Of a stretch of DNA of 64,000 bases, positions 5,415 to 28,081 are shown piece after piece (position 1 is the stretch's first letter; each line of letters opens with the position of its first letter). The position numbers and the translations under genes were made by a program. Source of the DNA: a virus (lineage: Duplodnaviria > Caudoviricetes); the IMG/VR virus record IMGVR_UViG_2713897221_000004, positions 36,004 through 100,003 of that record. One strand, given 5' to 3'. The notes beneath the pieces are model-generated. The model had not been told where the DNA came from. It made no database searches and saw nothing but the letters and a program-made list of their open reading frames with translations.

Positions 5415-6272
5415 ATGAAAACCACTGAACGAATCACCAAGCTGGTAATGGCCCGAAAGCCAGCCATTGGCGTGCGCAACGTTAAGCGCGATATCGCAAC
5501 CACGTGCGGCATCAGCTATGAGGCTGTGCGCCAGTGGTTTGCCGGCGATACCGAGAACATTAAGAACGAGAACCTGGTGGCGATCTCTGAGGGCTACGAC
5601 ACTACTGTCGATTGGCTGCTATCAGGCAAAGGTGAGCCACCAAGAAGAAAAGAATCGGCGACAGCAACTGGCGATTCGGCAGGCAACTCCAGCGCAGCTG
5701 ACCTGGTCCAGAAGATGCTGGAAAAACACGGAAAAGGCTTGCCTGAAGAAGCTCGCCAGAAGATCGTTGACGCTGTCGCAGATGGGGCAGCAAATGGCCA
5801 AGCTGGAAACGTAATCTCTGCCGACTTTTCCGGGCGCCGCCTGCAACCTGGTGATATTTCTATCCCGCAATACGACATCCGCGGCGCCATGGGCCATGGC
5901 CAGGTACCGGCTGAATACTCCGAAGCAATCAGGAACGTTGTTATCAGCGAGGATGTGCTGCGCGATAAAGGTATCCAGTACTCGACCGCGGCCAGTCTCG
6001 CGATGATTACCGGCTGGGGCCAGAGCATGGAGGGCACGATCAACGACAAGGACCCTGTCATCGTCGATCGAGGCATCAGTGAATTTGCAGGTGACGGCGT
6101 GTACGTCATCACCTGGCATGACCTGCTCTACATCAAGCGGCTCCAGGTGCATGACGCCGATCATTTCGAAATGATCTCGGACAACCCGAAGCACAAGGAC
6201 CGAGTCGTCCCGATTGGCGATGTGATCATCCACGCCAAGGTGCTGCTGGTCTGGAATGCTCGGAAGCTTTGA
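5415..6272 (+). CDS. cI: CI repressor (HTH + S24 peptidase)
   Basis: HTH GISYEAVRQW; GQSMEGTI and IKRL catalytic motifs. Confidence 0.93.
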   Translation: MKTTERITKLVMARKPAIGVRNVKRDIATTCGISYEAVRQWFAGDTENIKNENLVAISEGYDTTVDWLLSGKGEPPRRKESATATGDSAGNSSAADLVQKMLEKHGKGLPEEARQKIVDAVADGAANGQAGNVISADFSGRRLQPGDISIPQYDIRGAMGHGQVPAEYSEAIRNVVISEDVLRDKGIQYSTAASLAMITGWGQSMEGTINDKDPVIVDRGISEFAGDGVYVITWHDLLYIKRLQVHDADHFEMISDNPKHKDRVVPIGDVIIHAKVLLVWNARKL

Positions 6273-7632: not shown

Positions 7633-8063
7633 ACCGCTACACATACTCCATTTTTTGTGACGATATCCGCAATGAAGTGAATGGTAAGACCTCCCTGATC
7701 GGCGTTGTCGGAGGCCTGTTGTACGTAAACACTTTTCCTTGTGTTATTCCAAAACTTTGCGTCCTCATCACTGCAGTGACGGATCACGATAATCCTTTCA
7801 AGAGTCTCACTTTCAAGGTTCTGGTCGGCGAAGACCCAGCATTTGACGTAACCCTGGGAGAAGATGAAATTCAGAAAATCTCGCAGGGACAAGAGCTCAT
7901 TGAGGATCCAAAGGGGTTTGCAGCACAGGCAGTAGTTGTCATGTCCCCGCTCAGCCTTCAAGGTCCAAGTACAATCAAAGTTTTTGTCGTGGCTGATGGG
8001 GAAAAGCTTGACTGTGCCTCTCTTCAGATTTCCTTGGCCCCAGAAGGCGCCATTCTTGGATAA
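7629..8063 (+). CDS. Beta-rich hypothetical (DUF6941-like), third gene of the TA operon
   Basis: FCDDIRNEVNGKTSLIG motif; ATGA coupling. Confidence 0.6.
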   Translation: MNRYTYSIFCDDIRNEVNGKTSLIGVVGGLLYVNTFPCVIPKLCVLITAVTDHDNPFKSLTFKVLVGEDPAFDVTLGEDEIQKISQGQELIEDPKGFAAQAVVVMSPLSLQGPSTIKVFVVADGEKLDCASLQISLAPEGAILG

Positions 8064-8081
8064 GAAATTTACCTAACATAT

Positions 8082-8105
8082 GCCCGGCCCAGCGCCGGGC
8101 TTTTT
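8082..8105 (+). terminator. Intrinsic terminator
   Basis: GCCCGGC-CCAGC-GCCGGGC followed by TTTTT. Confidence 0.75.
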
Positions 8106-8134
8106 GTTTCCGCCCATTACTGCTGGATCAGCGA

Positions 8135-8962
8135 CTATGCCTTACCGCCGTATCGCTGCCAGGCAAGCACAATTTCCTTCATCGCGTTTTTCTGCGATTC
8201 CGGCAGAACGAAGTCATGGTAATACTGACGACCGTCGTAGCGAATTACGACTTTCTTGGCTGCAATGATCTTGTTCAGCATGGCCATGTCCTTGACTCTT
8301 GAATCTGACCATTCCCAAATGCTTCCCGCTCCATTGTCACGCTCAAAATCCATATTTCCCAGGTTGAAGACTTGATCATCTGCCTTGATGGTCACGCTTT
8401 TGACGAAGAGCCAGCTGTCTGCGTAATAGTTGAATTTCATCCGCAGCGGATATTGAGATGCTGATCCATCCTTTGTTCCGAAATACAGCGACATGTAGTT
8501 GTCCAGCACCGGTTCTGACTTGTGGGAAATCCATGTCACCCCTTCTATTTCGTCCGTATTCTTCCGCAGATTCGCATCAAGACGGGTGATAACCTGCTTC
8601 TGCTCTTCCGCCGCCCTAGCTGCTTCTAGCTGTTTTGCTTTTTCGGCAGCTTTAATCTTGGTGTTTACGTCGCTTAGCACAGATTTTGCACTCAGAGCCT
8701 GCTGGGACTCTGGGTAACGAGCAATCAAATCAGTAAGCGTCTGCTTTGCTGAGTCCAGAGCCGGCTGAGAAACTTCGTTCTTCGCCCTAGCCAACAACCG
8801 ATCCGGACCATTTCGCTCAGCCTCCAACTCTGCACGAAGGGTACTGATCTCCCCCTGGAGCTTGCTCACTTCTTGCTGAAGCCTTGCGGCGTTCTCTTTA
8901 TCGGCCTGACCGCAAGCCGTAAGTGACACTGCAAACCCTAGCGCTACAAAAAATTTATTCAT
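8135..8962 (-). CDS. Lipoprotein with coiled coil (moron)
   Basis: MNKFFVALGFAVSLTA-C lipobox. Confidence 0.75.
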   Translation of the reverse strand: MNKFFVALGFAVSLTACGQADKENAARLQQEVSKLQGEISTLRAELEAERNGPDRLLARAKNEVSQPALDSAKQTLTDLIARYPESQQALSAKSVLSDVNTKIKAAEKAKQLEAARAAEEQKQVITRLDANLRKNTDEIEGVTWISHKSEPVLDNYMSLYFGTKDGSASQYPLRMKFNYYADSWLFVKSVTIKADDQVFNLGNMDFERDNGAGSIWEWSDSRVKDMAMLNKIIAAKKVVIRYDGRQYYHDFVLPESQKNAMKEIVLAWQRYGGKA

Positions 8963-9045
8963 GAGTTCCTTCTCCGTGTAAGTCACCATATCCTACCAAA
9001 GTGCCACTACGTCGCCCGCTACTGAGCGGGCTTTTTGTGACCAGG

Positions 9046-9363
9046 TTAAAAAGGTGGTGGCTCATCCACCTCCTCCAGCTCCCCTCCTTCGATCACCCGA
9101 TCCTCATCGCTCGGCCTGTCCCACTTCAAGGTGACCGTGCCGTCATCGTTGAAGGTCATGTCGATACCGTCGGTTTCATCGAGCAACTCGAGAACCGCCT
9201 CCCATTCCTGGTCTCCGTCCGTATCAAGACGGTGGATCGTCACCCAGCGCTGAATCTGCGCCACTGGCGAACCAATCATTGCTGAAACCCTGAGCCCCAA
9301 CCGCTCCAGGCCAGTTAGCTCTGGCCGCTCCTGCAGCCCCTGGCTCTTCTTCTGCTTACTCAT
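9046..9363 (-). CDS. DUF1654-like Pseudomonas phage protein
   Basis: LGLRVSAMIGSPVAQ...DDGTVTLKW pattern. Confidence 0.7.
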   Translation of the reverse strand: MSKQKKSQGLQERPELTGLERLGLRVSAMIGSPVAQIQRWVTIHRLDTDGDQEWEAVLELLDETDGIDMTFNDDGTVTLKWDRPSDEDRVIEGGELEEVDEPPPF

Positions 9364-9381
9364 ACTGCACCTCATGAATAG

Positions 9382-9397
9382 CTGTACATGCATACAG
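9382..9397. promoter_or_regulatory. LexA (SOS) box
   Basis: CTGTACATGCATACAG = CTG-N10-CAG, upstream of the DUF1654-like gene. Confidence 0.75.
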
Positions 9398-9412
9398 TAT
9401 TAAAAATAAGCA

Positions 9413-9467
9413 CAAGTTTGCTTGCATTAAAAACACAAGCATGCTTTTATAAATGCAAGTCCACTTG
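9413..9467. promoter_or_regulatory. OL operators / pL
   Basis: CAAGTTTGCTTG (9413), CAAGCATGCTTT (9436), CAAGTCCACTTG (9456); same consensus as OR. Confidence 0.75.
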
Positions 9468-9823
9468 TACTTGGACAGGGCCTCGAAAGGGCCTGACCGC
9501 TCTTTAGCTCCACCCCTTGCCGGATCGACACCGGCGGCAACAGAAAGGTTTAGCGAGGTCGAGCCTCAATTCGACCCACGGGTAAAAGCGATCAGTGATC
9601 GTGCCTCGACCCGGCCGGAGCAGCCTAGATCCGTGCAGAAACAAGAGTGCAGTCGGGAAGAACCGCGGACTGCTGAACAACTTGAAGGGCCTGTACCGCG
9701 CCAGTAGCGCCGAAGGGCAAGGATGGCGCCCTGCCTGATTCAGGGCGCCCTCTGGTTTCACAAATGCCTCTCCTACCCCGGGAGGCATTCGGAAGCCAAA
9801 CAACCGCCCTGGAGGGCAACACG

Positions 9824-10042
9824 ATGTTCAACATGGCAACCATGGCGGCTGAAGAATGCCGCGAAGACAAAGCAGATCGCGCCTATTACAGCTGGCTTTC
9901 CAAGGTGGAAAAGCTCATCGGCCATTTCATCGAGCTTGGATCGCAGGAAGAGAGCGACTTTGGCGACTTTCACCGCGAGGGTCTAACCCCGGCTGAAGCT
10001 GTAACGGAGATGAAGGCCCAGCTGGCACAGATCACGGCATGA
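9824..10042 (+). CDS. Hypothetical early protein
   Basis: GGAGG RBS; first ORF of the pL operon. Confidence 0.65.
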   Translation: MFNMATMAAEECREDKADRAYYSWLSKVEKLIGHFIELGSQEESDFGDFHREGLTPAEAVTEMKAQLAQITA

Positions 10043-10104
10043 CGGTCTTTTCACTGATGCACCTGGTGACGGGTGCATTGGGAAAACAACCGGAGCAAGA
10101 CGTT

Positions 10105-10290
10105 ATGAGCCTGAAAGACCAGGGCTTCGCCTTCTGCATAAGCCCCGACAAGCAGCAATGGCGCTGGATACACCCCGCCGAACGCCAGCGCTTCTACGGC
10201 GACTGGACCGACGTTACGGAATGGCCGGACGACAAGCTTGTGGCGTTCCTAACGCCGACACCGGAACAGCAAGACCTGTTCGCCGCATGA
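10105..10290 (+). CDS. Hypothetical early protein
   Basis: GGAG RBS, MSLKDQGFAFCISPD. Confidence 0.6.
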   Translation: MSLKDQGFAFCISPDKQQWRWIHPAERQRFYGDWTDVTEWPDDKLVAFLTPTPEQQDLFAA

Positions 10291-10356
10291 CGATTTCACT
10301 CGCAGCCATTCCCACGAGTGGCTGCTGGGAAACAAACCGCCCTGGAGGGCAACGCC

Positions 10357-10491
10357 ATGTTCTCTCTCTTCATCTTCTTCCGCTTCATGCTTCGAGACAG
10401 CAAGCCAGCCGCTTTCAAGCCGATGTACGTGCAGACCTGGCCTGATGAAGTGCCGGGCTACCCAGCGTCTGATTTTGTTAAGAACCTGTAA
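10357..10491 (+). CDS. Small hypothetical (44 aa)
   Basis: Same 19-bp leader/RBS as the 9824 gene. Confidence 0.45.
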   Translation: MFSLFIFFRFMLRDSKPAAFKPMYVQTWPDEVPGYPASDFVKNL

Positions 10492-10519
10492 TCCGATCCT
10501 CATTCAATAGGACTTCCCG

Positions 10520-10999
10520 ATGAACGCACAACAGCAACTCACCCCGCCGGCCATCGGCGAAGTTTGGCCAGGCCAAGGCGGTATCTATGGCGGCCTTCGC
10601 CAGTATCCCGAAGGTATGTGTCATGTGATCTTCGCCACTGAAGACGTTGGTCGCCACGCTTACGGCGATTACGGCATATCGACTGAAGCCACCAGCCGCA
10701 CCGACGGCCGCGCCAACACGGCAATCCTGATCGCTCGCACTGGCAAGCACCCTGCGGCCATCGCTGCAGCTGCTTACACAGCCGATGGTCACGCCGACTT
10801 CTACCTGCCGGCGATTGGCGAGCTGCACCACGGCTGGCAGTACGCTCCTGAGTCGTTCAGTGAAGAGTGGTACTACCTGTCGAGTTCGCAGTACTCAGCC
10901 TACGGCGCCTACCTCATGGGCTTCGAAGATGGCTGGCTCCACGGCGACGACAAGACCAACGAGCGCGTGGTGCGCCCTGTCCGCAGATTCCTTCAGTAA
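10520..10999 (+). CDS. DGR target 1 (remote), DUF1566/CLec-like
   Basis: PAIGEVWPGQGG, DGRANT, DFYLP, SSSQYS...VRPVRR; carries VR1. Confidence 0.9.
   Translation: MNAQQQLTPPAIGEVWPGQGGIYGGLRQYPEGMCHVIFATEDVGRHAYGDYGISTEATSRTDGRANTAILIARTGKHPAAIAAAAYTADGHADFYLPAIGELHHGWQYAPESFSEEWYYLSSSQYSAYGAYLMGFEDGWLHGDDKTNERVVRPVRRFLQ
10886..10987 (+). repeat. DGR variable repeat VR1
   Basis: 102 nt, 11 mismatches to TR, all at TR adenines. Confidence 0.95.
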
Positions 11000-11019
11000 T
11001 TCATTCCTTCAATTTCCCT

Positions 11020-11370
11020 GACAGCCGGAAAGACGGCCCGATCACCTCGAAAGAGGCTGCATCGGAGTGTGAACTTGGACCTGATGAACTCCTGTCGGCT
11101 CACAGAACGAGCGAAGCAGGTTAGACAGAGTGGCGATGAGCTCCCGTTCAATGTCGTCAAGTTCACACCCCGATGCGGATGAATGCCCAAGCTGATGGGC
11201 AAGTGTAAGACCTGAGGGATCGCGGGAATCGTGGCCGGTAGAGTGAGTAAGCGCCCAGATGGCCACGGCGAGTCCAAGAATAAGCGGCTGAAACCTTCGC
11301 CCCGGTGAAACTCCGGTGTCACTAAGGCCGCTAATAGTCATGCCGGGATCAGCTCCGGTCATCTGCATCA
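11020..11370 (+). ncRNA. Candidate structured non-coding RNA/leader
   Basis: 19-bp stem 11059-11077/11158-11176, CCTC-GAAA-GAGG hairpin, further hairpins, no convincing ORF. Confidence 0.4.
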
Positions 11371-11735
11371 ACACCCAACCGGAGAACACTATGCTCCTGA
11401 TCATCCTGATCGGCGCAGCGCTGAGTCATGTGCGGCCAGAACCGCCTACCTCTGCCAGCCTGCCGACCGATCCACCAGCCAAGATTCGCGAAAAGCCTCG
11501 ACTGACAACCGGGGTCGCAGCGTTCTGGCGCTGACTGATCCCGCCAAAAACAACAAACTCATAGAGCTACACCATCAAGCTGCATCTGTAGCTGTACCGA
11601 AAGCCCCGAACGTCCAACGGGGCTTTCGTCTCTCCACCGAACCCAACAGAAAGCACTCCCTCCGCGCCCAACGGCAAAAGGCGGTGTGCGAGTGCTTTCG
11701 ATTGGATTTGAACCATCACCCGACAAGGAATCCTC

Positions 11736-12302
11736 ATGAAAACTTTTACCCCCGAACAACTCTCCGAAATCCTCGGTAAACACAAGTTGTGGCTGGACGA
11801 TGGAGAGGGTGGCGAGCGCGCCGACCTGCGCGGTGCCAACCTGGGCGATGCCGACCTGCGCGGTGCCAACCTGCGCGGTGCCAACCTGCGCGGTGCCAAC
11901 CTGGGCGATGCCAACCTGGGCGATGCCGACCTGCGCGGTGCCAACCTGCGCGGTGCCAACCTGCGCGGTGCCAACCTGGGCGATGCCGACCTGCGCGGTG
12001 CCTACCTGGGCGAAGTCAGAAACCTGAATGGCGCTACCGGCAACCGCAGGGAGATCAAGGCTATTCAATGCGACCTCTGGCCGGTCACGTACACCGCGGA
12101 ACGCATGCAGATCGGTTGCCAGTTCCACGCGCTGGCCGAATGGTGGGCATTCACCGATGAGGAAATCGCCGACATGGATAGCCAAGCGCTGGCTTGGTGG
12201 AAGGTCTGGAAGCCGCTCCTGCAACAGATCATCGAGACGTCGCCGGCAGAGCCAGGCGGCGAGCCGAAACAAGAACCTGCCGAGCCCGAAAATGCCGCAT
12301 AA
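11736..12302 (+). CDS. Pentapeptide-repeat protein
   Basis: 13 A(D/N)L(RG/GD) units; AAGGA RBS. Confidence 0.9.
11819..12013 (+). repeat. 15-bp coding tandem repeat
   Basis: GCC(A/G)ACCTG(CGCGGT/GGCGAT) x13. Confidence 0.9.
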
Positions 12303-12531
12303 GCGTCATGCGAGCGAGTCGTGGGGCCTGATCAGCCAGACCTGACGCTTGCCGGGAAGCGCCGGCCGCTCGCGCCTTTCATTGGAGATCGTCATGAAAC
12401 GCAAGCCATCAAAACCCCGCCTCAACGTCCACGACTGCGCCAAAGGCCGTATGCATGACGCACCGCGGAAAGTCGTTACCACTATGCCGGGCGGGTATAT
12501 CGCCTGACCTGCACCGCCGATGGAGGCGACC

Positions 12532-12819
12532 ATGGACTACGAAGTGATTGTTGAAGGGTTCGTCCTCCAGGTGGAGGTGACCCATTGCGTGAACATTCCG
12601 CCAAGCCCGGGCAGCTGGAACAGCGACTGGGATGCCCAGGGCGAGCGCGAGCTGGAGTTCAAGCTGAACTCTGCCATCTGCTACGACGATGATGGCATCC
12701 GCATGGATGTTGGTCTTTCGGCCTTACCAGTGCTGGCGTACCAGTACGTCCGCCAGATCGAAACAGCGCTGTGGATTGAGATCGACGCCAAGCGGCGCCG
12801 GGGGCGGTGGGCAGCATGA
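12532..12819 (+). CDS. Hypothetical phage protein
   Basis: GGAGG RBS. Confidence 0.65.
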   Translation: MDYEVIVEGFVLQVEVTHCVNIPPSPGSWNSDWDAQGERELEFKLNSAICYDDDGIRMDVGLSALPVLAYQYVRQIETALWIEIDAKRRRGRWAA

Positions 12820-13034
12820 CGCCGCATGAAATCGCAGTTCACCGTATCGAAACGGAAATCAAGCAGATCCCAACCTCGCTACTGCCAATCAATGCAGCTG
12901 AGCGGGCATGTATGGCCGCCTTCCTTTCCGAGGAGCTATCGGCCATCACCACGAAAGAGCGCGATGAGTTCTTGAAGCTGATTCGCGCCGCTGAAATGGT
13001 CCGTTATCTGGAGCTGCTCAAGGGGGCCGCATGA
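12816..13034 (+). CDS. Hypothetical phage protein
   Basis: ATGA coupling. Confidence 0.6.
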   Translation: MTPHEIAVHRIETEIKQIPTSLLPINAAERACMAAFLSEELSAITTKERDEFLKLIRAAEMVRYLELLKGAA

Positions 13035-13468
13035 ATACCATGACCTTAGCTTTCACCCACAAGTCCTGGCTAGGCGCTCTGTCGCTGGCCTACGACGCCG
13101 GCATCGAAAATGTCCACGCCTGGAGCCGCCGGGCCTGTCTGTGTGGTGAGTGGACTGTCGCTTATGAGGTGAAGGCATGACCCTACGCGAGTTCATCAAT
13201 GTTGCCGCCTGGCTTCTGTTCTGCGGCGCCGGGATCTGGGGGTTTTCTCAGGCCATCGAGCATCGCTCTGAAATTCCACAGATTCCGCATTGCACTGGGG
13301 TGGTTAAGTGAGATCTCTCCAGCAGGCTAGGAGGCTCGCCTACTGGCGTGGCTCTGCAATCACCCTCCTCCTCTGCACCTTCTTGATGTTGCTCGGCGCC
13401 CTCGCCGATCGCGTCACTCAGTAATCAACTCCTTCAAGCGCTGCGCACGTCGCGGCCAAGGATTCCCC

Positions 13469-14572
13469 GTGTCCGCACAACAGCAAGTCATCAAGATCGA
13501 CGACATTAGCGAAGAAAACGCACCGGCCATCTATGTCGCCGGCGGCCTTGGCCAGTTCTTCGACGCGGTAGCCGCTGAGGTCACCGCCGAGGTTCCAGAC
13601 CTGACCACTCGCAAAGGCCGCGAGCGCATCGCCTCTCTGGCGGCAAAGGTCAGCAAGTCGAAGACGGCCGTTGAAAAGCCGGGTCGCGACTACCTCAAGC
13701 GCCTGAAGGAAATGCCCAAGGTAGTGGAGGCCGAGCTGCGCGAGTTCGTCAACAAGATGGACGCCCTTCGCGATGCCACCCGCCAGCCTCTGACGGACTG
13801 GGAGCAAAAAGAACTGGCCAGGACCGACAAGCACATCGACGGCATCCAGAGCATCAAGGACATGGCCAGCTTCGACGAGCCACCGACAGCCGCCCATGTC
13901 GCCCAGGTCATCGCCGACCTGGAACTGCTGGCTCTCGACGACTCCTGGGAGGAGTTCTTGCCCGAGGCGGCCCAAGCCAAGAATCAAGCGCTGATCACGC
14001 TGCGCGGCCTGCACGCCGAGCGAGCCCGGCATGAGGCAGAGCAGGCTGAGTTGGCGCGCCTCCGCGAGGAGAAGGAAATGCGCGACAAGAAAGATCGTGA
14101 GGACCAGATCGCTCGGGAAGCCGCTGAGCGCGCTACGCAAGAAGCAGAAGAAAAGGCCCAGCGCGCTCGAGATGCAGAAGCTCAGCGCGTTCGCGATGAG
14201 CAGGAGGCTGCCGAGAAGCGCGAGAGCGACCTTAAGCTTCAGACGGCAGAAGCTGAGCGCCGCGCTGAACAGGCAAAGCGCGAGCAGGTTGAGGCCGAAC
14301 AGAGGGCTGAGCGCGAGCGACTGGAAGGCATCGAACGGCAAGCCGCTGCGGTGGAGCAGGCGCGACTGGATGAGGTCAAGCGCCAGAACGACGCCGCCGC
14401 CGAGATCCTGCGCCAGCAGGAAGCCCGCGAGGCCGATACGGCACACAGAGCCAAGATCAACCGCGCCGCCCTGGCAGCCTTCGTGGCTGGCGGCATGACC
14501 GAGGAATGCGCCAAGCAGGCAATCACGCTGATCGCCAAGCGCCAGATCCCGAACGTTTCGATTGCCTATTGA
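13469..14572 (+). CDS. Coiled-coil phage protein upstream of the recombination genes
   Basis: Long E/A/R/Q-rich helix; AAGGA RBS. Confidence 0.8.
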   Translation: MSAQQQVIKIDDISEENAPAIYVAGGLGQFFDAVAAEVTAEVPDLTTRKGRERIASLAAKVSKSKTAVEKPGRDYLKRLKEMPKVVEAELREFVNKMDALRDATRQPLTDWEQKELARTDKHIDGIQSIKDMASFDEPPTAAHVAQVIADLELLALDDSWEEFLPEAAQAKNQALITLRGLHAERARHEAEQAELARLREEKEMRDKKDREDQIAREAAERATQEAEEKAQRARDAEAQRVRDEQEAAEKRESDLKLQTAEAERRAEQAKREQVEAEQRAERERLEGIERQAAAVEQARLDEVKRQNDAAAEILRQQEAREADTAHRAKINRAALAAFVAGGMTEECAKQAITLIAKRQIPNVSIAY

Positions 14573-14579
14573 GGTCGCC

Positions 14580-15389
14580 ATGAGCAATACAGCACTTGCC
14601 GAGAAATCTGACGCTCGGCAGATCGCCTCCCCGGCGATCACCAGCGAGTCAACCGCAATGCTGACCATGATTCAGCGTGCCGCCACTGACCCCGCCTTCG
14701 ACGCGGACAAGATGCAGAAGATGATGGAGATGTACGAACGGCACACCGATCGTACTGCTGCAGCAGCATTCAACGCGGCGATGGTTAGAGCTCAGGCCGA
14801 GATCGGCCCCGTATTCCGCGACAAGTTCAACGCACAGACGAACAGCGCTTATGCCGCGCTTGAATCGATTGACCGGAAAATATCGCCGGTCTACACGGCT
14901 TACGGCTTCTCACTGTCATTCGGCACTGGAGACAGTCCGCTGGCCGGCCACATCCGCACGGTATGCGACTGCATGCATGAGGCTGGCCACACGAAGCAGT
15001 ACCACGTCGATCTTCCGATTGACTCGGCCGGCATCAAGGGCAGCGTGAACAAGACAGGCGTTCACGCCAGCGGCTCGACATACAGCTACGCCCGGCGCTA
15101 TCTGACGATGATGATCTTCAATGTCGTCCTGACCAATGAGGATAACGACGGGAATGGAGATCAAACACAGGGTCTTGGCGAGCTCCTAAACGAGTGGATA
15201 CCAAAGGCCTACGCCGCCGAGTCGAAAGAGGCTCTGACGGCTATCTGGCAAGCAGGCGTCCAGGCCTCCCAGGACCTGAAAGCTACCGACAAAAAAACGG
15301 CAACCGACCTCTATGAAGCATTGAAGGTTGCGGTCACCACTCGCGGGCAGCAGCTTAGCGCCCCCGCTCAAGAAGGAGCCGACCAATGA
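14580..15389 (+). CDS. erf: ERF-family ssDNA annealing protein
   Basis: YAALESID and GSTYSYARRY motifs. Confidence 0.85.
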   Translation: MSNTALAEKSDARQIASPAITSESTAMLTMIQRAATDPAFDADKMQKMMEMYERHTDRTAAAAFNAAMVRAQAEIGPVFRDKFNAQTNSAYAALESIDRKISPVYTAYGFSLSFGTGDSPLAGHIRTVCDCMHEAGHTKQYHVDLPIDSAGIKGSVNKTGVHASGSTYSYARRYLTMMIFNVVLTNEDNDGNGDQTQGLGELLNEWIPKAYAAESKEALTAIWQAGVQASQDLKATDKKTATDLYEALKVAVTTRGQQLSAPAQEGADQ

Positions 15390-16030
15390 TCATCGTTCAC
15401 TGCTCTCAAGGATCAGACGCCTGGCATCAGGAAAGAGCCGGCGTCATCACAGCAAGCATGTTCAGCGACGCCCGCGCCCGGCTGAAGTCAGGCCCCAACA
15501 AGGGCGAGCCGACCGCCAAGGCCTTGGACTATGCCTTCCGTCTGGCCGTTGAGCGTATCAGCGGCTCCCCGCTGGATGGTGGATTCGAAACCTGGCAGAT
15601 GAAGCGTGGCCACGAACTGGAGCCCGAGGCCCGCATGGAGCACGAAATCCAGACAGGGCTGATCGTCACTCAGGTTGGATTGGTTAAAACCGATGATGGC
15701 GTGTTCGGCGCCAGTGCCGACGGCTTCATTGGCGAGGATGGCGGGTCTGAGTACAAATGCTTCTTGGCGCCGGAAAAGCTGCGATCCTTCCACATCGACA
15801 ATGACGCCAGCGACATCATGGACCAAGTGCAAGGCTGTATGTGGATCACCGGCCGCAAGTGGTGGCATATCGGGATGTACTGCCCAGACCTTAAGCCAGT
15901 CGGCCGCCAGCTCTGGTGGCAGGAGTTTAAGCGCGACGAGGACTACATCGAAAAGCTCGAGGAAGACCTGTGGCAGTTCAAGCTGCTGGTCGATCAGTAC
16001 GAGGCCAAGCTGAGGAGTAAGGCAGCATGA
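15386..16030 (+). CDS. YqaJ/lambda-exonuclease family
   Basis: QGSDAWHQERAGVITAS, RGHELEP, ASADG, EYKC, QVQG. Confidence 0.92.
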   Translation: MIIVHCSQGSDAWHQERAGVITASMFSDARARLKSGPNKGEPTAKALDYAFRLAVERISGSPLDGGFETWQMKRGHELEPEARMEHEIQTGLIVTQVGLVKTDDGVFGASADGFIGEDGGSEYKCFLAPEKLRSFHIDNDASDIMDQVQGCMWITGRKWWHIGMYCPDLKPVGRQLWWQEFKRDEDYIEKLEEDLWQFKLLVDQYEAKLRSKAA

Positions 16031-16269
16031 TCAGCAACCACCTCAACCTGGTGGAGCGGCAGCGGCAAAGCGCCGAGGAGATATCGGCACAAGTCGCCCA
16101 GTTCCTGGCGGCCGGCGGCCAGATCGCCCAACTGAAAAGCCCACCGCGAAATCCCTTGCCGCCTCCCCGCTCAACCCGAATAGACCCTGAAACGGTCCTC
16201 AAGCGAAAGCCACGGCCGCTGACCCTGGCCGAGCGCCGCGCCCTTCGAAAAATGGCGGACTCACTATGA
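16027..16269 (+). CDS. Hypothetical phage protein
   Basis: Coupled ORF, FLAAGGQI motif. Confidence 0.65.
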   Translation: MISNHLNLVERQRQSAEEISAQVAQFLAAGGQIAQLKSPPRNPLPPPRSTRIDPETVLKRKPRPLTLAERRALRKMADSL

Positions 16270-16736
16270 GCAAGCGCAAGCCTCACAACCTCAAGGCCAG
16301 GATCGAACGATCCTGCCGGGCCCTGCTCAGCACCAACCACGTCGCAGTGGTGAACATCGACCCGAGCGGTCGCCAGGGCATGATCAATTACAAGTCGCTG
16401 AAGAACATCGCGCCGGGGAAGATCGGCCAGGCCGTCTGCGGCATTCCACACCGGTGGACGATCTACCTCAGCGCTCTATGTATCGATGCCCGCGGCGACC
16501 GCTACAGCAAGTCGATTGAGGTGGCTCCGGAAGGCGTCTACCTCTCCGACCACCTGGAGGACGTGATCGAGCATTGCTACAAGGAGCTGCGCGAATCAGC
16601 CAATCAAAGCCAGATGCTGGCCTCGGGATGGATCGCCATTCCCGAGGCGATGTCGCTCGACGAGGATCATGCAGCGCGGATCTTCGAAGCGGTCGGGGCC
16701 TGGCATCAGGTAAAGGTCGATTCATGCGCCGCATAG
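16266..16736 (+). CDS. Hypothetical phage protein
   Basis: Coupled ORF. Confidence 0.7.
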   Translation: MSKRKPHNLKARIERSCRALLSTNHVAVVNIDPSGRQGMINYKSLKNIAPGKIGQAVCGIPHRWTIYLSALCIDARGDRYSKSIEVAPEGVYLSDHLEDVIEHCYKELRESANQSQMLASGWIAIPEAMSLDEDHAARIFEAVGAWHQVKVDSCAA

Positions 16737-16805
16737 CCCGCACCCAACAACGTAAACGACAGACCTGGCTGGCACTGCCGGCCAGCGGAATCGAAGAGGT
16801 AGGCC

Positions 16806-17117
16806 ATGGCCAAGAGCAATGCGGAACGCTCAGCAAAGACCGCGGCGAAGCGAAAGAGCCGCGGCGAAGAGGAATTGCGACTCCATACACTGGCCGGAAC
16901 CCGCCAGGCCCTGGCCGACCTGATGGACTGGAACGGTATTGAGGAGCAGGGCGAGGCCATGACTCTGATGATTCACCATCTGCACGGCCTGGGCCCTGCT
17001 GGATCAGCTCAGTTCCTTTCAGCTCCGCGACACGAAATCACGATAAGCGAAAACGTGTCGCGCAAATTGCAACTCGCCTACAACCGCGAATCCCTTCGCA
17101 TCTGTCACGACGAATAA
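16806..17117 (+). CDS. Hypothetical phage protein
   Basis: GAGG RBS; basic N-terminus. Confidence 0.65.
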   Translation: MAKSNAERSAKTAAKRKSRGEEELRLHTLAGTRQALADLMDWNGIEEQGEAMTLMIHHLHGLGPAGSAQFLSAPRHEITISENVSRKLQLAYNRESLRICHDE

Positions 17118-17175
17118 CCCCTACCCCACGCTGCGCATCCGGTCCCGGAGGGCGGCGCACACCTGGAGAAACACC

Positions 17176-17652
17176 ATGACCCAAGTTGCACAGCAATTCA
17201 TCGCCGCCGCGGATCTCCCAGAACGCGGCCAACCTCTCGCCGGCGGCACCTTCTTCACCCGCTACTGGCTCAACGGCGAGGAGCGCGCCCTTGTACTGCT
17301 CGGCGACGAACTCAGCGGCGAGTGGGGCGAATATGGCCTCGACGTTCCTGGCGCCAAGAGCTACAGCGACGGCGAGGCAAACACCCGGGCGATGGCCGAG
17401 GCCGGCAGCAAGATCGCTATCAAGGCCCTGGAACTGGGTGCGCATATCCCTTCCTGCCTGGAGGGCCAGCTGGTTATGGCGGCCAAGGCCGATGGTCTGG
17501 TGACGCTACGCGAGGATCGCTTCCACTGGCTGAGCACGCAGTACTCAGCCCACTGCGCCTACGGCATGGGCTTCGGAGGTGGCTGGCTCGGCTACGGCGG
17601 CAAGGACGACGAGCGCGTGGTGCGCCCTGTCCGCAGCCTTCCAATTCGGTAA
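17176..17652 (+). CDS. DGR target 2, DUF1566/CLec-like
   Basis: DGEANT, WLSTQYS...VRPVR; carries VR2. Confidence 0.9.
   Translation: MTQVAQQFIAAADLPERGQPLAGGTFFTRYWLNGEERALVLLGDELSGEWGEYGLDVPGAKSYSDGEANTRAMAEAGSKIAIKALELGAHIPSCLEGQLVMAAKADGLVTLREDRFHWLSTQYSAHCAYGMGFGGGWLGYGGKDDERVVRPVRSLPIR
17537..17637 (+). repeat. DGR variable repeat VR2
   Basis: 17 mismatches to TR over 101 nt, all at TR adenines. Confidence 0.95.
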
Positions 17653-17771
17653 TTCATTCCTTCATTCCTTTTCTTGCAGGCGATTCCGGGAGCGTCAGGA
17701 CGACGCCCAGACCAGAAGCAAGCCGGGAAGCGCCGGCCGCCTGCACCCTATTTCGCTCACAGGAGCATCCC

Positions 17772-18359
17772 ATGCAAATGATCACCGTAAGTCACGGCGA
17801 GACCATGCTGACCACTCCGGACGCTGCCCTTGCACTGCAGGTGCTGACCGGGCTGAGCGCTTCCGCAAAGCCGGCCGCGGCACCATCTGGCATCCCAGCA
17901 ATCGGCGAATACTGGCCGGGTGAAGGCGGCGTCAACGGCGGCCTGTTCCAGGGCGGCGACCGCCCCTATTACCTGATCGTACCGACGGGCGAAGATGTCG
18001 AAGCCGACCTTGAGTGGGGCGGCTACGGCCAAGAACTCGACGGCGCCAAATCCCCATGGGATGGCCAGGCCAACACCGCTTATCTGGCAAGCAGCAACCG
18101 AGAGCACGACCACCCTGCCGCCCAGTTCTGCGCCAACTTCGAACGTGATGGACACAAGGACTTCTACCTCATGGCCAGGCGTGAGGCGACCCATCTCGAA
18201 ATCACAGTGCCGCACCTGTTCAGCAAGCCTTGGCACTGGACCAGTACGCAGTGCTCAGCCTACGGCGCCTACGACATGGACTTCGAAGATGGCTGGCTCG
18301 ACGACGGCGGCAAGGGCAACGAGCGCGTGGTGCGCCCTGTCCGCAGAAAGCTTATTTGA
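17772..18359 (+). CDS. DGR target 3, DUF1566/CLec-like
   Basis: AGGAG RBS before ATG 17772; PAIGEYWPGEGG, DGQANT, DFYL, WTSTQ...VRPVRR; carries VR3. Confidence 0.9.
   Translation: MQMITVSHGETMLTTPDAALALQVLTGLSASAKPAAAPSGIPAIGEYWPGEGGVNGGLFQGGDRPYYLIVPTGEDVEADLEWGGYGQELDGAKSPWDGQANTAYLASSNREHDHPAAQFCANFERDGHKDFYLMARREATHLEITVPHLFSKPWHWTSTQCSAYGAYDMDFEDGWLDDGGKGNERVVRPVRRKLI
18247..18347 (+). repeat. DGR variable repeat VR3
   Basis: 12 mismatches to TR over 101 nt, all at TR adenines. Confidence 0.95.
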
Positions 18360-18414
18360 TCCTTCAATGCTTCATTCCTGGGCGCCTCGGCGCCCTCGCT
18401 TTTAGGAGGCCAGG

Positions 18415-18768
18415 ATGGCCCTGCATACACAGTTAGAGATCCATAAGGTGGCCGAAGAGTTGTTCGGCATGGCACTCAGCTTGGTTCGCCATATTCCGCG
18501 CGACCTGAAACAGGTTGCCGGCGGCAAGATTCGGGATGTGTGTCTTGAGGTTCTGGTGCTGATCGGTAGAGCGAATATGGCTCGAGACAAGCGCCCGTAT
18601 CTCACCGAGGTCATCGAAAACATCTGGATGCTCAACTACCTGTTCAGGGCGTTATCCGAAAACGGCGCCATCAGCCGCGGCCAACATGCCAAAGCGATGA
18701 AGCTCACGGCCTCCGTAGGCCGACAGGCGAACGCCTGGAAGAAATCCGCAACCGCGCCCGCTGCTTGA
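18415..18768 (+). CDS. avd: DGR accessory variability determinant (four-helix bundle)
   Basis: 117 aa, helical and basic, IPRDLK...GRQANAWKK; lies between target and TR. Confidence 0.85.
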   Translation: MALHTQLEIHKVAEELFGMALSLVRHIPRDLKQVAGGKIRDVCLEVLVLIGRANMARDKRPYLTEVIENIWMLNYLFRALSENGAISRGQHAKAMKLTASVGRQANAWKKSATAPAA

Positions 18769-18937
18769 GGGTTACGGCTCTCCTGCCTGTGCGCTGAATC
18801 TGGTCGTGCCGCTGGCCCTTGGGCCACCGCCATGCGCATCAGAGATACCGCCGATCTAAAGCGTTCGGGCTGGTCTCGCGCAGTTTCTCTGCTGATCGGC
18901 ATCGCCTTCGGCAGAGCGACGTAGATAGCACGACAGG

Positions 18938-19039
18938 TCGCAGTACTCAGCCAACAACGCCTACAACATGGACTTCGAAGATGGCTGGCTCAACAACAAC
19001 GACAAGAACAACGAGCGCGTGGTGCGCCCTGTCCGCAGA
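18938..19039 (+). ncRNA. DGR template repeat (TR)
   Basis: AAC-rich copy (8 AAC codons, 31 A) of all three VRs, between avd and RT. Confidence 0.95.
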
Positions 19040-20138
19040 ATCAAGTGTTGCTCCCTTCCAGTTCGAGGATCTCGTCCAGGCCTACTACGATTGCCGCCGG
19101 CGCAAGCGGAACACCGCAAGCGCCAGGCGATACGAGCAGGACATGGAGATCAACCTGCTGGAGCTTTACGACGACCTGATAGCCGGCACTTACCGGCCAG
19201 GCCGGTCTATCTGTTTCGTCGTGACTCGGCCAAAGGCTCGCGAGGTGTGGGCCGCGGACTTCCGCGACCGGATCGTGCATCACCTGCTGTACAACCACAT
19301 CGGCCCCGCTATCGAGCGCAGCTTCATAGCGGACAGCTGCGCTTGTATCCCCGGTCGCGGCACGCTGTACGCCGCAAAGCGCCTTGAGTCGAAGATAAGG
19401 AGCGCCAGCCAGAACTGGTCGAAGCCGGTCTACTACCTGAAATGCGACCTGGCCAACTTCTTCGTGGCGATCAACAAGCCGGTGCTGCTCGAGCAACTGG
19501 CCGCCAGGATCACCGAACCCTGGTGGCTGACACTGGCCGAGCAAATCCTGATGCACGATCCGCGGGAGAACTACGAGGTCCGCAGCCCGGCGCACCTGTT
19601 CAACCGGGTGCCGCAGCACAAACGCCTCACTGCGCAGCCTGCACACCTTGGCCTGCCAATCGGCAACCTGTCGTCGCAGTTCTTCGCGAACGTGTACCTC
19701 GACGCGCTGGACCAGTTCGCGAAGCACACGCTCAATGCGCGCCATTACATCCGCTACGTCGACGACTTCGTATTCCTGCACGAATCGCCGCAGCATTTGA
19801 ACGAGTGGTTGGCCCGGGTGGAGGCGTTCCTGCCGAAGCTCGGCGCCAGGCTCAACCCCAGCAAGACCATCCTGCAACCGGTCGACCGCGGCGTCGACTT
19901 CGTCGGGCATGTCATCAAGCCATGGCGTCGAACAACCCGCAAACGATCTGTGGCCCAGGCGCTGAAGCGAACCGCCGCGGCGCCGGCCGAGGATCTGCGC
20001 GAGACAGCAAACAGCTACTTCGGCCTTCTTGGCCAAGCCAGCCATAGCCAGAAGGACCGGGAGAAGCTGGCCCGGGTCGTCTTGAAGCGTGGTCACGTCG
20101 TCAACGGCGACCTGACCAAGACCTACCCAAAGAAATAA
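18981..20138 (+). CDS. DGR reverse transcriptase (start uncertain; frame open from 18819)
   Basis: FRDRIVHH, KCDLANFF, GLPIGNLSSQFFAN, YIRYVDDF, VDFVG. Confidence 0.95.
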   Translation: MAGSTTTTRTTSAWCALSAESSVAPFQFEDLVQAYYDCRRRKRNTASARRYEQDMEINLLELYDDLIAGTYRPGRSICFVVTRPKAREVWAADFRDRIVHHLLYNHIGPAIERSFIADSCACIPGRGTLYAAKRLESKIRSASQNWSKPVYYLKCDLANFFVAINKPVLLEQLAARITEPWWLTLAEQILMHDPRENYEVRSPAHLFNRVPQHKRLTAQPAHLGLPIGNLSSQFFANVYLDALDQFAKHTLNARHYIRYVDDFVFLHESPQHLNEWLARVEAFLPKLGARLNPSKTILQPVDRGVDFVGHVIKPWRRTTRKRSVAQALKRTAAAPAEDLRETANSYFGLLGQASHSQKDREKLARVVLKRGHVVNGDLTKTYPKK

Positions 20139-20634: not shown

Positions 20635-21558
20635 ATGACAACAGCAATCGACCTGTTCGCCGGCCTCGGCGGATGGAGCACAGGCGCACGCGCCGCAGGC
20701 GTCCAAGTTCTCTGGGCGGCAAATCACTGGCCGGCCGCCGTGGAATGGCATAGCGCAAACCACCCTGACACCCAGCACGTTTGCCAGGACTTGCATCAGG
20801 CTCGCTGGGACCAAGTACCAGCTCATGACCTGCTTCTGGCGTCGCCATGCTGCCAGGGGCACAGCCCTGCGCGCGGGAAGGCCAATGGGAACCCACAGCA
20901 TGACTCGTCGAGATCTACAGCCTGGGCCGTTGTCTCAGCCTTGGAGTTTCACAGGCCGCAATTCAGCCTCGTTGAAAACGTACCCGAGTTTACGAACTGG
21001 GCGCTGTATCCGGCTTGGGTGCAGGCCGTCCAGGCCCTGGGCTATCAGGTCGCGCCGCATGTCGTTGATTGCGCTGATCTGGGTGTGCCGCAACACCGCA
21101 TCCGTCTGTTCCTGGTGCTCACGCGCAGCCAGGCGCCGCTGATGCTCGAGCTGCACAAGCGACAGCATGTCTCTGCCGCAAGCTTCCTCGACTTCGACGC
21201 CGGTCGCTGGTCGCTGATCGAGAAGCCGGGGCGGGCTCAGGCAACCCTTGACCGGGTGCGAAACGGCCGCCAGCGCTTCGGCGACCGGTTCATCATGCCC
21301 TACTACGGCAAAGGCTCAGGAACCACCGGCCGCGACATCAAACGACCGATTGGCACCATCACTACCTTGGACCGCTGGGCGCTGGTCGACGGCGGCCGCA
21401 TGCGGATGCTCAGCGCTAACGAGGCCCTGGCCGCGCAGTCGTTCCCGGCTGACACCCTACGCCCGGACAACCACCGACTGACCATGCACATGGCTGGAAA
21501 TGCAGTGCCGCCCCTGGCGGGGCAGCGAGTTATAGAGGCCTTGTTGAAAGCGGCTTAA
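20635..21558 (+). CDS. Orphan C5 cytosine DNA methyltransferase
   Basis: DLFAGLGG, SPCCQG, ENV, QHRIR, GNAV. Confidence 0.92.
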   Translation: MTTAIDLFAGLGGWSTGARAAGVQVLWAANHWPAAVEWHSANHPDTQHVCQDLHQARWDQVPAHDLLLASPCCQGHSPARGKANGNPQHDSSRSTAWAVVSALEFHRPQFSLVENVPEFTNWALYPAWVQAVQALGYQVAPHVVDCADLGVPQHRIRLFLVLTRSQAPLMLELHKRQHVSAASFLDFDAGRWSLIEKPGRAQATLDRVRNGRQRFGDRFIMPYYGKGSGTTGRDIKRPIGTITTLDRWALVDGGRMRMLSANEALAAQSFPADTLRPDNHRLTMHMAGNAVPPLAGQRVIEALLKAA

Positions 21559-24531: not shown

Positions 24532-25557
24532 ATGGGACGTAGACCGACAAAGCCCGGGAGCATATCCCGGCTAAGGGAAAGGAAGCGCGGCAAGCTGGTG
24601 TACTTCACATATGACCTTGGAGGCAAGCCACGCAAAGAGATCTACCTGGGAAAGGACTACGGCGTTGCGATCATGGAGTACGCGCGCCTGGAGCGCGACC
24701 GTACCGCGACTGCAGCCGCAGCGAAGGTCATCACCTTCCGCTACGTCGCCGAGAAATACCTTGTAGAGGTTGTTCCGACCAAGGGTTCAAACACCCAGAA
24801 GGACAATCTCAGGGAAATGAAGAACCTACTTGCCTTCTTCGATGATCCTCCTGGGCCGCTCGACAACATCGAGCCCATACACATCAGGCAGTATTTGACC
24901 TGGCGATCCTCGGCGCCAGTTCGTGCCAACCGAGAAAAAGCCCTCCTCAGTGCCATTTGGAACTACGCGCGCGACAAAGGCTACACGGCTCTGGCAAACC
25001 CCTGTTCTGGAATCAAGGGGAACAAGGAGACAGGTCGAGACACCTACGTTGAGGACGAGCTTCTTAAGCGAGTGTACGACAAGGCAGATGTAGGCCTGCA
25101 GGATGCTTTGGACTTGTTTTATCTGACTGGCCAGCGCATCGCCGACACTCTAAAAATGGACGAGCGAGATATCCGCGAAGGCCGTCTCTCTGTTCAGCAA
25201 GGGAAGACAAAAGCTAAACGACGCATCGAGATCACGGGAGAGTTGAAAGTAGTTCTTGATCGAATCCTGGCGAGAAAGGCTTCCCACAAGGTCCGCTCGA
25301 CGCGGCTGATCGTTTTGGAAGATGGCACGCCGATGACGACGGCAATGTTGCGGAGAAGGTTTGACCTGGCCAGAGAAGCCGCTGGAGTGGCCAAGCCTGA
25401 ATTCCAGATGAGGGATCTGCGGGCCAAGGCTGGCACAGACAAAGAGGAGTCAAGCGATATCGTCCAGGCCCGCGACCAGCTCGGCCACACAACGGTTGTC
25501 ATGACGGAGCATTACATCAGGAATCGAAGGGGGAAGAAGGTTTCGCCAACCAAGTGA
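24532..25557 (+). CDS. int: Tyrosine integrase
   Basis: TGQRIAD, RDLRAK, LGH...TEHY. Confidence 0.93.
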   Translation: MGRRPTKPGSISRLRERKRGKLVYFTYDLGGKPRKEIYLGKDYGVAIMEYARLERDRTATAAAAKVITFRYVAEKYLVEVVPTKGSNTQKDNLREMKNLLAFFDDPPGPLDNIEPIHIRQYLTWRSSAPVRANREKALLSAIWNYARDKGYTALANPCSGIKGNKETGRDTYVEDELLKRVYDKADVGLQDALDLFYLTGQRIADTLKMDERDIREGRLSVQQGKTKAKRRIEITGELKVVLDRILARKASHKVRSTRLIVLEDGTPMTTAMLRRRFDLAREAAGVAKPEFQMRDLRAKAGTDKEESSDIVQARDQLGHTTVVMTEHYIRNRRGKKVSPTK

Positions 25558-25637
25558 ATTGCGGCAACAATCTAGGATTGCGGCAATTCACTTGTTGCGT
25601 GCTTGCGGCTTTATAGGCCGCAAACCCTTGAAATAGA

Positions 25638-25724
25638 TGGTGCCCGAAGCCGGAATCGAACCGGCACGCCCTTACGAGCGGGGGATTTTAAGTCCCATGC
25701 GTCTACCAGTTTCGCCATTCGGGC
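25638..25724 (-). tRNA. tRNA-Leu(TAA)
   Basis: 87 nt, GGGA-CT-TAA-AA-TCCC anticodon arm, long variable arm, GGTTCGATTCC, CCA end. Confidence 0.95.
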
Positions 25725-27234
25725 GGTAGCGCGGTGTTGCAATCTGAAAGGCTTGAATTGCTTGAGCCGTTTCAGCGCCTTGCGGCAAGGGGGTGAAATA
25801 TATACATCCCCTACTCTTGAAGCAAGTTCGTTGGCGTCAAATTCAAGACTGGATGTCGAGTACGGCCACAAACAAAAAGGCTCCGTAAATCATCGATCTA
25901 CAGCGCTATTTTTATAAGTGGGAGCAACTGCCAGAACCGAACCGGTGCAGATGGCGCCGCATTCCACTGATAAAACCAGATATTTCAATAGGTTACCACA
26001 GCAAAAACGGCGTAACCATCTGATTTTAAAAGGCTTGTAGCTGGGCGAACAGGCGAAGACAGATTTGCCCAGCCAGTGTAGGGATCGTGACGCCACTAAC
26101 CCCATGGGCCAGCGAAGTCGAAGAGGCAGGCCAAAGGCCAAACTGCGAAGGCGCGATCAGCTAAACGCGAGGACAATAAAGAGACAGAGCCGCATCGCTC
26201 TTCCGGACTTTTCAACGAGGGATTATTCAAAGGTGCCACAAGATCACCAGGCGTAATGCCTGATAAATTGGCGCCCACCCTGACCAGCTGTTGGCCGTTC
26301 AGCATTCCATCGTAAACACACCTGGCCGGGCAAGCGCGACCACTCTATCCAGAGCGGTCGCGCATGTCTCGAAGACAATTCTGAAGAAACCTGAACGGCT
26401 TGAAGAAGCCTGGACGATAGTAGGCCGCCACCTGTGCCGTGGCGACGCCACCAGGCGAGAACGACTTGGTCAAGGGTGCCATGACGAAGCGGTTGTGCCT
26501 TGAGCACCCTGGTCGTGCTGGAAGGCTGCCTGGTGATCGGACGGGCCAGCGTATAGACAGAAGCATTCGAGGCGGGGCTGGTGATGCTGCTTATCCAACT
26601 CGGCGAACAGAGAGCGGCACTTTCCTTAACCACCAAGCCAGTCTCTTGAACAGGCAGCGATAGCGAGGCGGTGGATGGGACTCCATTGACTCGCACATGC
26701 GGCAGGAACCGTTGGCCAGGGCAAGACGGATCAGCCGCATGACCTTAGCGCTTTAAAACACAGCTGGAAGATGTGCCCAAGCGCAACGAGTGACCGCCGC
26801 CTCGGCGAGCAAGCGCATGTCATCTGTCAGGTTCGATAGCCAGACCTTCGCGCCGTTGGAGCACCTTTACCCCAGATTGAAAATCTCGATGCAGAACCCA
26901 CATGAGCGAACATTGATAAAACAGCAAAAACAATTGACTCTGACACTAACTCTACCACTCGTCGGAACCGTCACTTCATAAAGGTGGAGGTACCTTGCTT
27001 TTACCTGTTTACAGGCTTGACTGTATTCCTATCTATGATCGAAGGAGGAAACGAAACATATCAGCTCAAGAAACTGACACAACTCTTGACACCGATATCA
27101 ATCGCCTTTGCCATCAATACTCCACGACATCTTCAATGAGTTAACCTAACTACTGTTTTCTCGTAGCAGTGGCAAGTCTGCAATTTGATTTTGAATAGGG
27201 AGCCAACTCATGGAATGCACAATCAAAAAGGAAT

Positions 27235-28043: not shown

Positions 28044-28076
28044 AAAACCCCGTAGATCATTGATCTACGGGGTTTT
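28044..28076. terminator. Terminator next to the tRNA-Cys 3' remnant
   Basis: AAAACCCCGTAGATCA-T-TGATCTACGGGGTTTT. Confidence 0.75.
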
Positions 28077-28081
28077 CAGTT

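Follow-up and report, generated by a model that had tools for sequence, protein, structure and literature searches.

How one short template in a temperate phage comes to diversify three genes at once, and what such genes do when they lie among early functions rather than in the tail module, are the questions raised by the locus described here. It lies in a 64,000-nt stretch of viral DNA (Duplodnaviria; Caudoviricetes; positions 36,004 to 100,003 of IMG/VR record IMGVR_UViG_2713897221_000004), hereafter the window, in which a sequence-only reading had proposed a three-target diversity-generating retroelement (DGR) in the early operon of a lambdoid prophage. We are highly confident in describing the locus as a complete DGR that belongs to a clade common in temperate phages of Pseudomonas and Burkholderiales, a description that takes in a proposed mechanism and probable early binder targets.

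The element is defined by its repeats. A repeat search returned four in-register copies, at 10874, 17524, 18234 and 18926 (family D2), and no fifth copy was found in the whole 100,003-base record, where all four matches are accounted for by one template repeat (TR) and three variable repeats (VR1-VR3). The record also contains a single reverse transcriptase (RT) gene. Ungapped comparison reproduced both the coordinates and the mismatch counts (11, 17 and 12) that had been read from the letters, with the 102-nt TR aligning gap-free to the 3' ends of three genes, T1, T2 and T3. The claim that every mismatch falls on a TR adenine, once VR2 and VR3 are aligned from the second TR position, likewise held: all 40 internal mismatches are on adenines, and the only additional change is T>A at position 1. 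With A at 31 of the 102 TR positions, the chance of such an outcome is about 2e-21. The spectrum comprises 30 A>G, 5 A>T and 5 A>C changes. Codon phase is 0 at the start of each VR, first or second codon positions account for 19 of the 20 variable TR positions, and each VR ends 3-5 codons upstream of the target stop codon. Read in the target frame, the TR contains eight AAC codons, and the estimate of 15^8 variants per target was recomputed as 2.56e9. T2 is 30-35% and T3 50% identical to T1. As had been proposed, a single TR faces three paralogues, each with a VR at its 3' end that has diverged adenine-specifically. T2 and T3 form a tandem pair and T1 lies 8 kb upstream, which places the targets 0.7-8 kb from the TR.

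The remaining parts of the cassette are clustered around the TR. The gene that had been called Avd-like encodes an accessory variability determinant (Avd) that matches Pfam bAvd with 51.6 bits, above the cut-off of 40. Between avd and the TR lies the structured RNA RT-15, whose match spans the whole Rfam model (1-192 of 192) against a gathering score of 82, and whose final three bases are bases 1-3 of the TR. Because RT-15 occupies this same position in the window and in eight of eight sampled relatives, Burkholderiales included, it is presumed to form the 5' portion of this clade's DGR RNA. RT-1 to RT-19 were described as motifs found near RT genes; in the text of that article only RT-10 was linked to a DGR, that of phage BPP-1, and a DGR role for the other motifs was offered as speculation (Weinberg 2017, PMC5737381). 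A position directly 5' of the TR would give an orphan RNA motif a concrete, testable role. The RT itself carries in frame the two motifs from which it had been recognised, LPIGNLSSQ and YVDD. The SQ form of the LPIGNLSSQ-type motif is typical of DGR RTs. The closest canonical start codon in the RT frame is an ATG at position 44 of the TR (18981), an arrangement shared by 80 of 159 family loci; in 23 of the 159 a TTG is found just 3' of the TR. With this ATG inside the TR, the RT may be translated from within its own template. No excess synonymous conservation, as would be a sign of an Sp-like RNA 3' of the TR, was found in the first 75 RT codons, where third-codon-position entropy (0.86-1.05) lies within the range of the remaining gene (0.65-1.24).

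Table 1. Features of the DGR cassette and its prophage surroundings (positions in the window)
Feature	Position	Strand	Remarks
CI-like repressor	5415-6272	+	phrog_4 / phrog_6201
Target T1 (159 aa), remote, single-domain DUF1566/C-type-lectin-like	10520-10999	+	phrog_4245 C-terminal part, E 1e-29
VR1	10886-10987	+	11 mismatches vs TR, 11/11 on TR adenines
TTCATTCCT motif after T1 stop codon	11000-11008	+	candidate target-side marker
Erf-family annealing protein and YqaJ exonuclease, upstream of tandem targets	14562-16030	+	Pfam ERF, YqaJ
Target T2 (158 aa), distal member of tandem pair	17176-17652	+	phrog_4245 E 8.5e-23
VR2	17536-17637	+	17 mismatches on TR adenines, plus T>A at TR position 1
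Overlapping pair of TTCATTCCT motifs behind T2 stop codon	17653-17669	+	
Target T3 (195 aa), proximal	17772-18359	+	phrog_4245 E 7e-29; AGGAG 6 nt before ATG
VR3	18246-18347	+	12 mismatches on TR adenines, plus T>A at TR position 1
TTCATTCCT motif after T3 stop codon	18371-18379	+	
GC-rich hairpin, 6 pairs, 4-nt loop, then T run	18380-18395	+	terminator-like; candidate terminator or DGR inverted repeat; 3' of VR3 only
avd (117 aa)	18415-18768	+	Pfam bAvd 1.5e-13
RT-15 structured RNA (Rfam RF03018)	18752-18940	+	179.5 bits, 189 nt
TR	18938-19039	+	102 nt, 31 adenines
Reverse transcriptase (start uncertain)	18981-20138	+	RVT_1 5.3e-18; YVDD, LPIGNLSSQ in frame
C-5 cytosine DNA methyltransferase, downstream of RT	20635-21558	+	TIGR00675 dcm 8e-33; annotated match in phage PseuP_224
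Tyrosine integrase, at the end of the operon	24532-25557	+	phrog_1, 7e-43
attR, 77-bp repeat over 3' part of tRNA-Leu(UAA)	25620-25696	.	tRNA 25638-25724, minus strand

Relatives of the cassette extend the finding to a family. At least 597 RT relatives were confirmed in IMG/VR, 80 of which (81-95% identical) were kept, and 383 were found among one-per-species genomes, mostly in Pseudomonas (75-87% identical) and then in Burkholderiales and Rhodocyclales (67-71%). Each locus was scanned with its own TR, allowing up to three non-adenine mismatches; 78 of the 80 kept IMG/VR loci could be analysed, the other two lacking the TR region at a contig end. Two VRs were found in 58 of these loci, three in 15, one in 4 and none in 1. 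In two-VR loci the VRs lie about 0.7 and 1.4 kb upstream, and where there are three, the third lies 3.4-8.5 kb upstream in 14 of 15 loci, all three being in tandem in the remaining one (L076). Adenine-specific variation among homologous prophages, on which the sequence-only reading had let its case depend, was massive: mismatches in the 78 relatives number 2216 at TR adenines (of 2298) against 82 elsewhere, and 44 of these 82 are at TR position 1. Among 44 GTDB loci (L086-L129; RT at least 75% identical; the partial match L131 excluded), 40 have at least one VR and 4 have three. When a panel of window proteins was applied to 158 loci, the genes found upstream were avd (157 loci), a YqaJ homologue (36) and Erf (25), and 34 loci had a co-directional integrase homologue downstream; the remaining loci have different neighbours.

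More distant relatives, with RTs about 67-71% identical, often showed no VR at the fixed TR offset and were excluded from the counts. The missing VRs are probably an artefact of the method, because RT-15 ends 6-15 nt earlier in three of four sampled non-Pseudomonas loci (L130, L141, L149). Two loci, L060 and L131, have templates with only 20 adenines; the VRs of L060 differ from its TR by 1-5 bases, and no VR was detected in L131. The template of these loci may have lost its mutagenic adenines.

The ends of the repeats suggest how recipient copies might be told from the template. The last 28 nt of the TR (19012-19039) are GC-rich and invariant across the TR and the VRs, except that the final A (19039) is C in VR2, and they constitute a candidate segment resembling the initiation of mutagenic homing (IMH) site. 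Directly downstream, a pyrimidine-rich stretch is present in all three VRs and not in the TR. It contains the 9-mer TTCATTCCT, which occurs four times in the window, each time just 3' of a VR, where 0.55 occurrences are expected by chance. The stretch containing TTCATTCCT may mark recipient copies.

The cassette is hosted by a 60.9-kb lambdoid Pseudomonas prophage at tRNA-Leu, and the window is the right part of the corresponding IMG/VR provirus record. The prophage is bounded by 77-bp direct repeats, attR having its partner beyond the left edge of the window, at a distance of 60.8 kb. NinG and NinB, together with an O-like replication protein and an Ant-type regulator, are encoded on the minus strand at 0.3-4.6 kb, and from about 9.8 kb a plus-strand gene array extends to the integrase, adjoining tRNA-Leu(UAA). 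This array contains T1, a pentapeptide-repeat protein, Erf, the YqaJ exonuclease, T2, T3, avd, the RT and the C-5 cytosine methyltransferase. Terminase, portal, major head protein, tape measure protein (1068 aa) and a J-type central tail fibre (1151 aa) are encoded on the minus strand to the left of the window, and none of the late genes, the J-type fibre included, carries a VR. The targets are thus 25-50 kb from the tail genes and on the opposite strand. Describing the location as the early operon of a lambdoid prophage is fair because of the gene order, att repeats and late genes as found: the co-directional array runs from the side of the CI-like repressor through Erf and YqaJ to the integrase, in a prophage that also has NinB/NinG, an O-like protein and a J-type fibre.

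All three targets match the C-terminal 170 of 583 positions of phrog_4245, a family of unknown function, and their closest homologues are proteins of 159-160 aa from Pseudomonas chlororaphis named DUF1566 protein. Matches of the targets to Pfam Lcl_C (DUF1566) were weak and below cut-off. A profile of 50 target-family members matched the C-terminal domain of Legionella Lcl (Lcl-CTD, 8q4e) with E 0.026; its depositors describe this domain as a trimeric C-type-lectin-like DUF1566 domain (PMC11162425). An AlphaFold (AF2) model of T1 had a mean predicted local distance difference test score (pLDDT) of 70.6. Because Foldseek found no match to this model in the PDB at E <= 0.001, the fold assignment rests on VIA-align and the weak profile match. 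The top VIA-align hit was a Bacteroides fimbrial protein (Z 7.4 over 137 residues), followed by Lcl-CTD (Z 6.8); lower ranks were taken by numerous C-type lectin domains and by TaqVP, Mtd and TvpA, which are variable proteins of DGRs (Z 2.6-3.9). Z values below 8 are middling and the list is coherent, suggesting a DUF1566/C-type-lectin fold for the predicted target domains.

Searches of the three targets with PADLOC and NCBIfam gave no match. A lipobox was found in none of 129 target-family proteins and a strongly hydrophobic N-terminal 12-mer in only one of them, so that by this crude hydropathy test the targets appear to be without recognisable export signals. Homologues are short, 533 of them against 6 of 280-2000 aa. 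One of the 533 (P0109) carries an N-terminal Arc DNA-binding domain; five further loci, with targets that apparently aligned there, showed no Arc domain in Pfam, and this single fusion is not treated as a family trait.

In the mechanism that these features suggest, an RNA consisting of the RT-15 structure followed by the 102-nt TR would be bound by an RT-Avd complex and reverse transcribed, with misincorporation opposite adenines. The complementary DNA would replace the homologous last ~100 nt of T1, T2 and T3, rewriting up to ~20 codon positions. The recipients have the GC-rich invariant 3' segment in common with the TR, and the pyrimidine-rich downstream stretch with TTCATTCCT may mark them. 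Their products are most likely variable binding proteins, expressed early and acting within the infected or induced cell. That the clade diversifies two or three cytoplasmic early binders of lectin fold against host or rival-phage factors (for example, defence proteins), using a 5' RT-15 scaffold in place of the 3' spacer of BPP-1, and does not diversify a receptor-binding protein, is a more specific proposal that we advance only tentatively. If it is correct, a temperate phage would gain an adaptive repertoire of intracellular binders against fast-evolving factors, and targets acting inside the cell would give DGRs a role beyond host attachment.

Whether the element still works was addressed through its closest relatives. 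L049 and L097 align in register over 3328 nt with 19 differences, all 19 in the proximal VR at TR adenines, and L055 differs from L097 by 13 TR-adenine changes in the distal VR together with eight substitutions in the RT; therefore, each target has been rewritten very recently and independently in that lineage. In five other pairs of near-identical relatives the VRs are identical too. The single raw-read run gave almost no coverage of the element, with seven reads in 4 of 30 bins. The sequence-only reading had suggested recent activity from the intact open reading frames, and this suggestion holds in part: the parts are intact and recent rewriting is seen in close relatives, whereas the window's own VRs are identical in three other sequencing runs.

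Several observations weigh against the picture of a complete, working DGR with intracellular targets. VR1-VR3 showed no differences in contigs from two isolate runs and one groundwater metagenome. A start-codon survey found the stretch between the TR and the conserved N-terminus of the RT to be free of canonical starts. The IMH does not differ from IMH* in this element, TR and VR diverging just downstream, a situation for which cases are mentioned by Wu 2018 (PMC5758913). A GC-rich, terminator-like hairpin lies downstream of VR3 only, and not of VR1 or VR2; in the Bordetella element a GC-rich inverted repeat is needed for efficient homing, but such a repeat is not defining for DGRs, because only 34% of them have one downstream of the VR (Wu 2018, PMC5758913). 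Avd aligns over its full length with NCBIfam DivGenRetAVD at 45.5 bits, under the cut-off of 80. The VR part of the T1 model has pLDDT below 50, and the intracellular reading rests on gene position and the crude hydropathy test. In one alternative, the three 3' ends would be ordinary diverging paralogues or gene-conversion tracts and the RT an unrelated enzyme of retron or group II intron type, in line with its weak, sub-cut-off NCBIfam matches to group II intron and retron RT models and with the name 'retron-type RNA-directed DNA polymerase' given in GenBank to its homologue in Pseudomonas phage Cruim01. Ordinary divergence would not give 40 of 40 differences at template adenines, nor 2216 of 2298 in relatives, and both avd and the TR directly adjoin the RT; this explanation is refuted by the adenine specificity, and we regard it as exceedingly improbable. 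A frozen relic, in which diversification took place in the past, homing has ended and the three VRs are now ordinary fixed alleles, has more to be said for it. The three runs with identical VRs are labelled as different organisms or habitats, the missing RT start would fit a defective gene, and L060, whose VRs nearly equal its TR, and L131, both with 20-adenine templates, indicate that decay occurs in the family. Even so, the two isolate runs may come from the source strain or close kin of it, and rare variants stay hidden in contigs; the RT has an open frame with YVDD, Avd is full length, RT-15 is intact over the whole model, the TR keeps its adenines, including the eight AAC codons, and VRs have been rewritten very recently in close relatives. 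We consider a relic rather unlikely, and because all parts look intact, an element that is functional but rarely fires in the lysogen is rated above it.

A further alternative concerns the site at which the targets act. They might be virion receptor-binding accessories, with the DGR switching host range in the manner of Bordetella phage BPP-1: tail proteins predominate among viral DGR targets (Roux 2021, PMC8144416), a match to the last 170 of 583 phrog_4245 positions implies that longer family members exist, and the best structural match is an adhesive fimbrial protein. This reading is possible but doubtful, as the genes belong to the early operon, far from the tail genes and opposite to them in strand. 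Moreover, a tail-docked adhesin appears less likely than an early intracellular binder because the same early neighbours are kept across siphovirus- and myovirus-tailed phages, which argues against docking to one tail type, because no signal peptide or lipobox was found, and because long homologues are so few; the judgement draws on gene position and sequence.

Other features of the window lie outside the DGR. In the 735-nt gap 3' of T1, a block of about 200 nt (11175-11373) contains no convincing open reading frame and is 96-97% identical in prophages L052, L116 and L099, in which the RT is only ~82% identical. The block matches nothing in Rfam, folds with z-scores of -1.8 (+) and -0.65 (-), and occurs as well in loci that lack a remote target. 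The pentapeptide-repeat gene of the early operon (11736-12302, +) contains a 15-nt tandem DNA repeat in 12 overlapping copies (11790-12048), and over ~190 nt its DNA is 87-91% identical to pentapeptide genes of Salmonella P22-like phages. Between two prophages lies an island of low GC content (47-53%; 25700-34000) with genes for a Shedu-type SduA_C protein (28608-29987) and a PAAR-motif protein (31939-32484), and with a match to the Pseudomonas small RNA P10 at 31959-32030. The second prophage, of myovirus type (34000-62100, -), is joined to the DGR prophage in one IMG/VR provirus record and encodes gpA terminase, a lambda-family portal, tail sheath, tape measure protein, baseplate hub gpD and a VapE-like primase.

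Comparison with known systems begins with the DGR of Bordetella phage BPP-1 (mtd-avd-TR-brt). The two elements share the order target, avd, TR and RT, adenine-specific differences between TR and VR, a VR at the 3' end of a target of C-type-lectin fold, a GC-rich invariant 3' segment and a temperate phage host. They differ in that BPP-1 has one tail-fibre target among its late genes, whereas the element described here has three small non-tail targets in the early operon. In BPP-1, RT-10 lies between TR and brt (Weinberg 2017, PMC5737381), whereas here RT-15 is 5' of the TR, the TR adjoins or overlaps the frame of the RT, and synonymous conservation 3' of the TR showed no excess. The layout avd, RT-15, TR, RT therefore places the conserved structure 5' of the template, unlike in BPP-1.

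Closer counterparts are found in two sequenced phages. Pseudomonas phage Cruim01 (PP179333) has an RT 85% identical to that of the window, two tandem targets and a third 9.1 kb upstream, RT-15 annotated in its record between avd and RT, and, further downstream, genes for a methyltransferase and an integrase; unlike the prophage described here, Cruim01 is an isolated phage. A 90-nt probe revealed three VRs, whose 10, 12 and 13 mismatches are without exception at TR adenines. This three-target DGR (269-868, 7999-8610, 8687-9304 and 9356-11086) is unannotated, the record calling the targets hypothetical proteins, and a term search of the main text of the Cruim01 paper (PMC11256456) for 'diversity-generating', 'retron' and 'reverse transcriptase' found none of them. 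Burkholderia phage Magia (MT701587), with an RT 66% identical, has the order nuclease/RecT, short lectin-fold target(s), avd, RT and integrase. Its authors noted a potential DGR and placed its target sequences in two short genes, 47 and 57, adjacent and non-adjacent (PMC7883833), and A-specific VRs were found here in genes 47 and 46. Magia differs in its Burkholderia host, its myophage virion and its shorter targets (~120-155 aa). The order recombination, targets, avd, RT and integrase is common to both phages, Cruim01 being described as a siphovirus (PMC11256456) and Magia as a myophage (PMC7883833).

With respect to target class, the DUF1566/Lcl_C domain is shared with the DGR of Legionella pneumophila and the DUF1566 CLec2 class (category d of Wu 2018), in which about half of the targets are short and consist of this domain only; unlike the family described here, with its lack of lipoboxes, the Legionella target LdtA is a surface lipoprotein (Wu 2018, PMC5758913). 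The use of one TR for several VRs, including non-adjacent ones, recalls Treponema denticola and other multi-target DGRs, although the Treponema system is cellular with remote targets, whereas all targets here are close to the TR within the prophage. According to Wu 2018 (PMC5758913), more than one target lies within the cassette in about 15% of DGRs, and 45 of 372 have non-adjacent targets, those associated with phages usually being in the same prophage and within 50 kb. A literature search found no functional study of the targets or RT-15 of this clade; the supplements of Wu 2018 and Weinberg 2017, which may list the clade, were outside its scope. The kind of DGR, its multi-target form, the DUF1566 target class and the RT clade are already present in surveys, Rfam and at least one phage announcement, and the three-target arrangement is not unusual in view of the 15 of 78 relatives, the isolated phage Cruim01 and the published multi-target cases. 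The value of the locus is as a well-resolved example of an abundant, unstudied clade that is present in hundreds of Pseudomonas and Burkholderiales prophages and in the culturable phages Cruim01 and Magia. The diversified proteins of this clade are small and are encoded beside recombination and integration genes, not in the tail, and in this respect it departs from the tail-protein targets that are usual for viral DGRs.

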